A DNA stretch of 63,581 nucleotides, counting the filler, from Stramenopiles sp. TOSAG23-3 (lineage: Eukaryota), in the NCBI GenBank assembly GCA_900128585.1. It is 24 parts of 24 records of this genome, joined end to end, with 100 filler letters (N's around TTAATTAATTAA, not from the genome) between each part and the next. Parts side by side here need not be neighbours in the genome. Positions count along the whole stretch, not along the records: positions 42,541 to 45,087 come from LT644737.1; 23 more parts are not named here. One strand, given 5' to 3'. Made by a program: the position numbers and the translations under genes. Shown here piece by piece: positions 42,441 to 45,187 of the stretch (its first letter is position 1; every line of letters begins with the position of its first letter). The notes under the pieces are model-generated. The model searched no databases. It saw only the letters and a program-made list of their open reading frames with translations, and was not told the origin of the DNA.

Positions 42441-42542
42441 NNNNNNNNNNNNNNNNNNNNNNNNNNNNNNNNNNNNNNNNNNNNTTAATTAATTAANNNN
42501 NNNNNNNNNNNNNNNNNNNNNNNNNNNNNNNNNNNNNNNNTC

Positions 42543-42704
42543 GAAATAAAAAGCAAACTCCCAGTCTTTGACGTGGTCTTGGTCTTAAAGCCGAACGGTT
42601 TGTACAAACGACGAGTGCTGAAGCCGCTAGAGACGCTTGAAGTGGAACACTACTTAAGACACTCAACCATTCTCTTAGATTTTCAAGAATATGAATTATG
42701 GTAA
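42543..42704 (+). CDS. 3' end of an upstream ORF overlapping the recombinase start by 14 nt
   Basis: 53 codons open from the contig edge (EIKSKLPVFDVV...DFQEYELW*); not in the ORF track. Confidence 0.4.
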   Translation, partial: EIKSKLPVFDVVLVLKPNGLYKRRVLKPLETLEVEHYLRHSTILLDFQEYELW

Positions 42705-44613
42705 GAACAGTGGAAAAAAAAGACCACCAAATTGGTCATCATATCACTCAAATAAAAAACAGGCATTTGCCAAGCAAGTAAGGGGCATGTCAAAAAATCT
42801 GGTTTTGACTCCTGAAAGACCACCGTTGGCCAGTGATAGTGGTAGCTCTAGTTGTACATCTTCTACTTCCAGCTCTAGTTGTAGTAGTTCTAGTTCAGAT
42901 ACTGATTGTGATTTGGAAAATGGTGAAGATGTTGATTGCAATGATGTTGATGGCAATGCCAGTGTCAAGAAAGTTGAAGACCTAAATAAGTATTTTGATT
43001 TTGGTGTTTCTGTTAGCTTAAATGATGCATATTTAAGCAAGTTTAAGGTGGAGCACAAACTGTCTGTTTACGAAACATATATGGAGTGGGTATCATCTGA
43101 AAGTGCTGGTGTAGGCCTTGAGTCAAAAAGGAAACAAATTGAAATGGGTTATTCTCGAGGTGCCTGTTTTGGTCTTGGTAAACAATTGAATCGCTACGTC
43201 ACTGATTTGGATCTTGTGTGCCAATATGTTGACACACACATTACTGTTGGGGATGTTATGTCATCATTTGATCCAACAGAGGATAAAACATCAAAGTTCT
43301 GGTATGAACACTTGAAAGCAGAGCAGAGTGAGCAGCCTGTGTATATCCAAAAAAAGCGTCGAGATAATATTGTGGGGGGAATCAGCAAGTTTCTTGCTTT
43401 CTGTTTTGTAATTGAATCAGAAGACTTTGCAACATACATACCACCATTTGGAAGTATTAGGAATGTAGCAAATGACTTTAAGCTTATTGATTCCTATTTG
43501 CATCACAGAACAAATTTGAAGCACCGTGCTATATCCGTTGTTCAAGATCTGTCGAAACTGAATTTTTTCATAAAGCGAATTGTTGCTGCCTTTTATTGTG
43601 TTGATAAAAAGAGTAGATCAATGTTAATGGAGAGGTATAAGTACATACCTGAGGTTGTCAATGCAACACCAGCATTATCTGAGTATATTTCAATGAGAAT
43701 GAAAGATGTTCGTTCCCAAAGTGTACTTCAGCACAATGAAAAATACTCAATTGCCGGTATGAAGGAGGCTAAACTGTGGGTTCCTAGAGAAAAAATCAAA
43801 CTGGATAGAAAAACTATTGTTGAAAAACTAATACTGTTCAGAAATGTTGTTGGAAACAAAAGTTACCCGTTGGAAGCTATTGATGATCAAAGTAAAAAAG
43901 ATCAGAGAACATTTGCAGCATCACAGTGTCTGATCATTGCATTAGTTTGCAACACATGTTATGGTAATCGGACACAGGTTATGCAAAAGTTAAAACTTAA
44001 TGAAAGGAGACTTACATGCAGCTACCATAGAAATTGTCAAGAGTACATGGAACAATTACATGAACATCAACATGTTGAATGGGATCTAGATAAAGTTGGG
44101 CGTGAAAAAAGAGCAAGGGATCGAAAAGGCATAGGGCTTGTAGAGCCAGATTGTATTACAAGTTTTTTAGATTGGTTCATAACTGCAACACAAGATTTTC
44201 GTCTGGAGTGTAAGGATCCAAGTTTTGTGTTTTTTCCTCTTGTCTTTCATTATGGAGCAGCACGGTCAATTACTTTCAGAAAATCATCTAACTTTCAGAA
44301 CACAGATGTGAACAAAGCTATTCGTTACACCAATGCTGTCTTTGATGTTACCATACCAAAGCCCTCTGTGATGCGTCATCTTTATTGTACACATGAATAT
44401 TTAGATTGGTATGAGTCAAGTCCAGGGGTAGACAATCGGGATTTTGATAAACTTTTGGAAGACCTTAGCTATGACATGAACACAACAGTACATGAGATTC
44501 TAAACACATATTTAGTCTGCAACTACTCCCGATATCAATTACATGATCATGAAGCTAGGGTTAGAGCTGCATCTAAAGTAAACAAAACACTGGCTGGTAT
44601 GAGATATACATGA
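42691..44613 (+). mobile_element. Divergent tyrosine recombinase/integrase (640 aa) of a mobile element (Polinton-like-virus or Crypton type)
   Basis: Catalytic-domain order CYGNR (R 43969-43971), KVGREK, FVFF, KPSVMRHLYCT (R 44374-44376) and LSYDMNTT......Y (Y 44509-44511); clearly lower GC than host genes. Confidence 0.78.
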
Positions 44614-44682
44614 TTATAAAATGTCCAATTGCCATGAAGACATTAAAAGCTTTGACCATCATTGCAAAGATCATGTGAAAGA

Positions 44683-44817
44683 TAAGGGAGTAAGGTGTCG
44701 CTGGGATGTTGACTCATTGTGACGGTCAACTAACTGTACCTGCCACAAACCTCCCTTACAGTTCCAAATGTGAAGTAAGGTGTCGCTGGGAGATTTATCC
44801 TGCCACAAACCTTCACA
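44683..44817. other. Two tandem structured units (44683-44758 and 44769-44817) with identical cores and covarying outer stems; ncRNA or ssDNA recombination-site candidate
   Basis: Shared AGTAAGGTGTCGCTGGGA and CCTGCCACAAACCT; outer stems TAAGGGAG/CTCCCTTA versus TGTGAAG/CTTCACA. Confidence 0.75.
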
Positions 44818-44859
44818 AAAATTTTGGGGCCTTGACTTTTAGGAATGCATATTTTAAGG

Positions 44860-45087
44860 CTACTGGAGATAGAGTACTGGGGCAGAGAGCATACCGTGAA
44901 GAGGTGCCCTCAGGAAAAAAACAAAAAAATAACAAATCAGGGTCATGCAAGACCACGTATCTTTCTCGCAGTAGGGAGAGTCTTTAAAGTAGAACCCCGA
45001 CCATGCCGTCACGTAGACCAGCAGCATCGAGTACGCCCCCATGTTATGCAGCGATTGTCGTTGTTTCTTATTGGACGCTTCTTCGTC
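44860..45087 (-). CDS. C-terminal fragment of a probable host membrane protein converging on the recombinase element
   Basis: Frame open from the contig edge (DEEASNKKQRQ...) with hydrophobic segments; higher GC than the recombinase. Confidence 0.4.
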   Translation of the reverse strand, partial: DEEASNKKQRQSLHNMGAYSMLLVYVTAWSGFYFKDSPYCEKDTWSCMTLICYFFVFFLRAPLHGMLSAPVLYLQ

Positions 45088-45187
45088 NNNNNNNNNNNNN
45101 NNNNNNNNNNNNNNNNNNNNNNNNNNNNNNNTTAATTAATTAANNNNNNNNNNNNNNNNNNNNNNNNNNNNNNNNNNNNNNNNNNNN

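Follow-up and report, generated by a model that had tools for sequence, protein, structure and literature searches.

Bacterial integrase genes abut att sites, and the att sites of bacterial integrative elements often lie in tRNA genes. To our knowledge, recombination sites that work as folded DNA are known from bacteria only. In the nuclear genomes of eukaryotes, the great majority of covarying hairpins are RNA elements; protein-binding stem-loops of 3′ UTRs include iron-responsive elements and histone 3′ stem-loops. Stramenopiles carry their own group of Cryptons, CryptonS, and the excerpts available of the study describing them (PMC3212892) give Cryptons terminal direct repeats of 4–6 bp, often TATGG in CryptonS. 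According to the same excerpts, a double-stranded site requires inverted repeats of 11–13 bp that are set 6–8 bp apart (PMC3212892). Among papers on Cryptons and tyrosine recombinases retrieved by full-text search, titles and opening lines of abstracts describe no hairpin site beside a eukaryotic recombinase gene.

The locus reported here holds an unexplained pair of hairpins that stands beside an unannotated family of recombinase-like genes and matches no known RNA family (Table 1). It was found in a window, the whole stretch of DNA analyzed (1–63581; 63,581 nucleotides, filler included), that consists of 24 separate contigs of ~2.54–2.57 kb each. The contigs stand in order of decreasing length and are linked by N44-TTAATTAATTAA-N44; adjacency in the window does not imply adjacency in the genome. 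Given that contigs of the window encode eukaryotic genes (BBS1, TRM1, an ABC transporter, and a PTEN-like phosphatase) and that some carry convergent gene pairs, we take the window to be compact genomic DNA of a flagellated protist. The contig bearing the hairpins spans 42541–45087, and portions of it recur in many marine metagenomes. Its left end, just upstream of the ORF, is a repeat of unspecified kind that reaches ~10 times the depth of the ORF in two metagenomes and one metatranscriptome. The same repeat is found in tandem in public contigs of 252 nt, going back 96 and 126 letters between copies.

Table 1. Features of the hairpin-bearing contig, in positions of the whole window
Feature	Position	Strand	Description
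Left contig end, high-depth repeat	42541..42636		Depth ~25–50 vs 2–3 for the ORF
ORF P0001, 640 aa, orphan family	42691..44613	+	Tyrosine-recombinase-like C-terminal motifs
Non-coding module, 307 bp	44604..44910		From the last two codons and stop; 99.3% identical in L001 and L002
Long-range stem, ACAUGAUU with GAUCAUGU, predicted only	44607..44677	+	Closes the first domain just ahead of unit 1
Hairpin unit 1 (76 nt)	44683..44758	+	8-bp closing stem, TAAG/AAAC loop, bulged inner stem, 32-nt tip
Linker CAGTTCCAAA (10 nt)	44759..44768	+	Without H box
Hairpin unit 2 (49 nt)	44769..44817	+	7-bp closing stem, loop and bulged inner stem as in unit 1, 7-nt tip
TTTT run	44822..44825	+	4 nt past unit 2
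Right flank of contig	44911..45087		Unrelated to the post-module flank of L001, L002, and X4

The two units stand as a sequence-only reading of the window had described them, 10 bp apart within 44683–44817. Unit 1 begins 70 nt downstream of the stop codon of the ORF (44611–44613), and the pair covers the interval 70–205 nt past that stop on the coding strand. Core copies sit 85 nt apart and proved slightly longer than claimed: a 5′ core of 18 nt (44689–44706 and 44774–44791) and a 3′ core of 14 nt (44739–44752 and 44799–44812) are identical in both units. The closing stems around these cores differ yet pair perfectly, again as claimed, but their innermost two pairs (AG/CT) are common to both units, which confines the difference to the outer 6 bp of unit 1 (TAAGGG/CCCTTA) and the outer 5 bp of unit 2 (TGTGA/TCACA). 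All pairs of these outer stems are Watson-Crick. Comparison of the units thus yields 0/32 core differences, changes at four of seven stem positions on both sides, and tips of 32 vs 7 nt. Folding with ViennaRNA recovered the proposed layout in both units, as RNA and as DNA and on either strand, with a closing stem, a 4×4 internal loop (TAAG/AAAC), an inner stem bulged at UC and at U, and a variable tip. The separate GTTGAC/GTCAAC stem proposed for the tip of unit 1 was also recovered, at 6–7 bp. Within the inner stem, the GGGA/UCCU pairing includes a G-U pair on the sense strand only; the opposite strand has A-C at that place. A TATAAA sequence at 44615, which might serve a small RNA as promoter, stands in AT-rich surroundings.

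The predicted stability of each unit is modest (z about −2; −6.6 and −11.9 kcal/mol for the hairpins as DNA), so the case for the hairpins is built on their pairing pattern and not on energy. At the base composition of the contig, flanks would be perfectly complementary by chance with a probability of 1.3e-3 over 5 nt and 3.1e-4 over 6 nt, or jointly ~4e-7. The pattern of the hairpin pair is real and not a product of chance, and its covariation comes from two units only. Fixed cores, stem change on both sides, and a free tip are the usual mark of a protein-binding or catalytic single-stranded fold. They support the view that selection acts on the units as a single-stranded or cruciform fold, whose invariant asymmetric core is present twice. 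The selection on single-stranded structure that had been proposed is upheld in this form, within the limits of a two-unit comparison.

A different origin would make the units a local by-product without any dedicated function, left by a small palindromic or foldback repeat, by templated repair, or by duplication. The modest thermodynamic signal would suit such a remnant. Two perfectly complementary flanks around identical asymmetric cores would not, given the joint chance of ~4e-7, and a duplicate under neutral decay would not keep all 32 core positions intact and at the same time change at four of seven stem positions on both sides. The motif also does not behave as a dispersed repeat. A search for the cores, which the sequence-only reading had recommended, found two sites only in the 63.6-kb window, even with three mismatches allowed in the 5′ core, and the depth of the motif equals that of the gene. 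We hold an origin of this kind to be quite unlikely.

Membership in known RNA families was assessed with Rfam 15, as had likewise been recommended. At E values up to 10, the only matches in the region 44400–45090 were four at chance level, and no ribozyme, snRNA, or snoRNA was among them; across the window, no match attained the gathering score of its family, and contigs L001–L003, which encode relatives of the ORF, gave no match at E ≤ 0.1. The earlier failure to recognize a known ribozyme agrees with this result, and known ribozymes are effectively excluded for want of an Rfam match. ARAGORN reported no tRNA or tmRNA. The sequence AAUUUUGG at 44820 fits the Sm-site pattern R-A-U(3-6)-G-R and was rejected as such a site, the pattern having a frequency of 0.67 per kb per strand in the window and an expectation of ~0.2 in the module. 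The core pattern was matched at no locus in viral contigs. Its 20 loci in GC-rich bacterial genomes are chance matches: all lack the TAAG/AAAC loop, and their closing stems do not exceed 2 bp.

Two of the identities first suggested for the units fell to these comparisons. One was an H/ACA-like guide RNA for pseudouridylation, brought to mind by a pair of hairpins that each have an internal loop and, at or beside the 3′ end of the stem, an ACA. The interval 44745–44780 contains no ANANNA H box, the ACA of unit 2 is paired within the closing stem, and the internal loops, at 4+4 nt and the same in both units, are too small and too uniform for guide pockets. With no snoRNA matched in Rfam even at E values up to 10, we reject the guide RNA as very improbable. 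The other was membership among attC sites, although the absence of the attC GTTRRRY consensus and of cassette ORFs had been noted from the start. Indeed, RYYYAAC and GTTRRRY boxes are absent from both strands of 44670–44830, and no cassette ORF lies between units that are 10 bp apart. Membership is rejected because the consensus boxes and the cassette context are missing; the 4×4 loop, the UC and U bulges, and the tips of 7 and 32 nt in the predicted DNA and RNA folds retain a likeness of layout only.

The protein encoded upstream, P0001, bears motifs that resemble the catalytic residues of tyrosine recombinases: YGNRTQVM (R427), REKR (K473), SVMRH (R562, H563), and NTYL (Y607). Across its family, the conserved forms are YG[NS]RTQVM, REKR, RH[LI]YCT, and NYL. 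Residues R427, K473, R562–H563, and Y607, whose catalytic roles were assigned by eye, are kept in all family members that cover them. The first histidine of HxxR is serine in most members (histidine in P0006 and P0014), and H601 is replaced by glutamate or threonine in distant ones. Profile databases were silent on the family. Pfam gave no match for P0001 at E values up to 1 and none for 11 family members at E values up to 10, with DUF3504 and PF00589 unmatched; PHROGs and NCBIfam likewise gave none, and a PDB profile search matched low-complexity serine runs only. Lambda Int alone produced no match. Two AlphaFold models were poor (pLDDT 38.4 and 48.8), and Foldseek returned no match at E ≤ 0.001; both were uninformative on the fold. 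In the ESM Atlas, however, 19 of 30 named look-alike clusters were PF00589 sets and three were ResT/TelK telomere resolvases, with a top score of 0.96. Alignment of the family to 20 bacterial catalytic domains with hhalign was weak (probability 4.5%, P 0.0089, 95 columns) and in the expected register, pairing K-x-R-x-VPL with RKGIGLVEP and PHxLRH with PSVMRH. Taken together, the ESM Atlas lead, the in-register alignment, and the motifs suggest that P0001 probably adopts a tyrosine-recombinase fold. The enzyme named outright in the sequence-only reading thus becomes a probable one, backed by these leads and unmatched in Pfam, PHROGs, NCBIfam, and the PDB.

The family is small. A word-indexed search found three relatives of P0001 among 8000 candidates scored (99%, 63%, and 59% identical), and an exhaustive profile search at E ≤ 0.001 found 11 proteins among 1.84 billion representatives, most of them fragments. 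Viral contigs yielded no protein relatives. When metagenome contigs were scanned with a four-sequence alignment of the C-terminal part, 34 stretches matched, three of which encode relatives (L001, L002, and L003). The relative on L003 has 758 aa and is 47% identical in the C-terminal part; the contig stops ~45 nt past its stop codon. Between P0001 and P0003, dN/dS is ~0.1, which indicates purifying selection and a real coding gene.

Several further features of the family were recorded. Residues 442–457 of P0001 (window about 44014–44061) contain an invariant T-C-x2-H-x-N-C ... H pattern that resembles a small metal-binding knuckle and falls between the putative catalytic arginine and lysine. 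At the N-terminus are a basic stretch and a long run rich in serine. P0014 (365 aa) has the conserved ...PKPHVYRHLYCTH motif followed by unrelated sequence and may be a fusion, an intron read-through, or a broken copy. The heptamer TACATGA occurs four times in the final 560 nt of the ORF (44055–44613), at 44057, 44489, 44540, and 44607. Two of the copies lie in similar peptides, QLHEHQH and QLHDHE, and the last overlaps the stop codon, at the identity boundary described below. Upstream of the 758-aa relative, L003 carries a 94-nt direct repeat (145–237 and 317–410; 89% identical) within 145–518, and a 33-nt inverted repeat (257–289 and 486–518) flanks the second copy of it together with an AT-rich microsatellite; these repeats show no likeness to the hairpin units.

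The hairpins recur behind a second, strongly diverged gene. L001 and L002 encode a homologue that is 63% identical to P0001 and carry the 307-bp module behind it with two mismatches, at 44843 and 44889, and with both hairpins letter-identical to those of the window. The coding sequences upstream are 55–85% identical, with dS of ~1.5–1.8 and synonymous sites saturated. Identity sets in no more than a few bases from the last two codons, 79 nt ahead of unit 1, and past 44910 the flanks of the window and of L001/L002 are unrelated. A near-identical flank next to saturated coding divergence is not ordinary co-divergence. The comparison shows a module flank that was shared recently, whether by recombination, by gene conversion, or by gene forms that are alternative neighbors of one locus. 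The sequence-only reading had asked for the motif to be sought beside homologous recombinase genes, and it is indeed found behind the 63% homologue, but the whole 307-nt flank is 99.3% identical there and the occurrence is therefore not independent. All copies seen have hairpins identical to the letter, and so copies beside homologues add neither covariation nor independent conservation. A second sharp switch of sequence occurs near the locus: L001 and L002 are identical over 1650 nt and split at L001 2916, inside a convergent minus-strand ORF (L001 2767–3576, L002 1501–2169) whose L002 form has a weak Rtt106-like middle-domain match (E 1.5e-5).

The shared module also bears on the possibility that the units lack a dedicated function, in which case the near-identity of the flank would come from alleles or recently converted paralogues in one species. 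To explain near-identity over 307 nt next to coding sequences of saturated divergence, recombination or a shared locus is required and selection is not, and both gene forms are present in one sample at similar depths (2.5 vs 3.6). Moreover, 20 contigs combine the same module haplotype as in the window with a right flank of the L001 type. An origin of this kind would account for the flank being identical but would leave the pattern inside the units unexplained.

Other public copies extend the comparison. In run X4, one Logan contig leads from a coding end of the P0003 type through the module, with 0 differences, into the L001-type right flank. One low-depth contig of run X3 has the coding end of the window over 382 nt and other sequence after the first base of the stop codon; by eye, the latter is like a diverged, indel-bearing start of the module. 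In that run, 44666–44835 was uncovered, which makes it uninformative on the hairpins. A mosaic X4 contig, P0001-like until about 44376 and P0003-like thereafter, was not counted as biological recombination, since the assembly may have switched between the two forms at words that they share where the coding sequence is most conserved. An ATG-initiated ORF runs through both hairpins (93 aa, window 44706–44987; 72 aa, L001 2058–2276) and is labeled "hypothetical protein" on at least 47 public contigs. We consider it probably a spurious gene call, produced by the conserved non-coding module, and not evidence of coding, since both L001 differences alter an amino acid and the ORF enters unrelated flanks, and we used the 72-aa form only as a probe to count public copies of the module. 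So counted, the module has four protein-level variants, on 12, 20, 12, and 3 public contigs, and each variant is followed by a right flank of the L001 type; the variant on 20 contigs equals the module haplotype of the window. This count sees only amino-acid-changing differences in one frame, and it places the three variable sites at 44843, 44848, and 44889, all 3′ of the TTTT run and none within 44706–44840.

The right flank of the window differs in standing from the module. No X3 or X4 contig bridges the module to it, and loose ends of such contigs cluster in the A-rich stretch 44906–44936 (at 44906, 44910, and 44936). The segment 44936–45087 also occurs in a metagenome contig of 3200 nt, where other sequence adjoins it on the left. 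Past 44910, the contig of the window probably represents a different locus or was joined during assembly at the A-rich stretch, and it may be chimeric or rearranged; of the module boundaries, the left one alone is secure. Contigs from two metatranscriptome runs cover only 42541–42903, 43219–43590, and 43651–43689 and are uninformative on transcription of the module.

Given the recombinase-like neighbor, the units could be a folded-DNA or cruciform site at which that protein acts much as integrases do on attC, the main alternative and one that we regard as on the unlikely side. At the edge of a Crypton-like integrating element, the protein would bind each unit as a hairpin on one strand or as an extruded cruciform; otherwise, the module would be a fixed target beside which such elements insert. 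Two hairpins could seat four protomers. The recombinase-like motifs of the ORF and the weak leads argue for it, though tyrosine-recombinase identity is unproven. So does the layout of the units, with its paired box, unpaired spacer, extrahelical bases, and variable tip, but attC boxes are absent from both strands, cassettes are lacking, and hairpins of −6.6 and −11.9 kcal/mol are weak as DNA. Tips of 7 and 32 nt would be tolerable only in a folded site: by the spacing rule given in the excerpts of PMC3212892, a double-stranded core site could not accommodate 32 nt. Cryptons are reported in the same excerpts to lack both conserved non-coding sequence and terminal inverted repeats (PMC3212892), which counts against a site of this kind. 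The module boundary can be argued either way. Identity between very different coding sequences that starts within a few bases of the stop fits alternative occupants of one junction, as does the identical coding end in X3 that runs into another flank. However, alleles or paralogues with a common flank would explain the sharp boundary equally well, the boundary lies 79 nt before unit 1 and not within a hairpin, and no second copy of the junction octamer occurs in the flanks available upstream of the ORFs (150 and 117 nt).

The reading that we prefer, with a probability of about 0.38, is that the units form a structured RNA that is transcribed and offers the same protein-binding core in two copies, where transcription, strand, and protein binding are what we infer. 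The two copies of the RNA motif would be transcribed from the sense strand, either within the 3′ UTR that follows the recombinase-like ORF or, from a start past the stop, as a small RNA. The invariant asymmetric core, comprising the TAAG/AAAC internal loop, the UC and U bulges, and the inner stem, would form the recognition surface for the protein; the closing stem would need pairing only, and the tip would be free to vary. Two copies 85 nt apart could bind a dimer or two copies of a protein, possibly the encoded protein itself, and binding may control mRNA stability, 3′-end formation, or translation.

A structured RNA is suggested by the contrast between cores without a single difference in 32 positions, stems changed on both sides, and tips that differ in length and sequence. 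It is also suggested by location: the units follow the stop on the coding strand, and in L001 the hairpins fall within an 800-nt gap between convergent genes, the place expected of a 3′ UTR. The inner-stem G-U pair that exists on the sense strand only, the TTTT run after unit 2, and the lesser variation in the hairpin part of the module all point in the same direction, and covarying hairpins in eukaryotes are, as a matter of general knowledge, usually RNA. Some results count against an RNA. By predicted folding energy, the sense strand is not favored over the other (−46.7 vs −45.9 kcal/mol), and the whole module is predicted to fold no better than shuffled sequence (z 0.02). The covariation comes from two units, and the recombinase-like neighbor is a coincidence unless the protein binds its own RNA.

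A wider reading joins the hairpins to the protein whatever their chemistry: a new recombinase-like gene family of marine protists would work with tandem folded hairpins, be they a DNA attachment site or a structured RNA partner. We judge this rather unlikely. In its DNA form, the locus would be a eukaryotic counterpart of attC or of CTX-type folded substrates, with elements alternating beside the junction at the stop. If the hairpins are the substrate or RNA partner of the protein, they would be the first folded-nucleic-acid recombination site of a eukaryotic tyrosine-recombinase-like enzyme and would open a way into a wholly unannotated protein family, with only 11 representatives among 1.84 billion. 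If they are a 3′-UTR element, they would be a compact new protein-binding RNA motif of an uncultured marine protist, useful and not surprising. Either way, the switch from saturated divergence to near-identity is unusually sharp, falls exactly at the stop codon, and marks a recombination junction or a long-lived polymorphism.

Set against the known systems, the locus shares some features with each. From Cryptons it differs in that TATGG occurs inside the ORF only and that DUF3504 and PF00589 are unmatched; it resembles them in that one large ORF has a recombinase-like domain at its C-terminus, copy number is low, terminal inverted repeats are absent, and the host is a protist. The units resemble attC in that their outer box is paired, their spacer unpaired, some bases extrahelical, and their tip variable in length, and they adjoin a gene that may encode a tyrosine recombinase. 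Unlike in attC, the inner part is here conserved and the outer stem variable, attC showing the reverse; there is no RYYYAAC/GTTRRRY box, the 10-bp spacing holds no cassette ORF, the host is eukaryotic, and the neighboring protein has no detectable IntI or PF00589 match. Bacterial att sites provide the closest parallel for the module boundary, in that a recombinase gene ends at a junction and is followed by hairpin-bearing sequence common to very different recombinase genes, whereas here the host is a eukaryote, no tRNA or known RNA gene is present, and neither a second junction nor an empty site was seen. Protein-binding 3′-UTR stem-loops differ from the units in sequence and loop geometry, which match no such Rfam family, but share with them a short hairpin, an invariant bulge or loop core, a closing stem free in sequence, and a tandem position after the stop codon.
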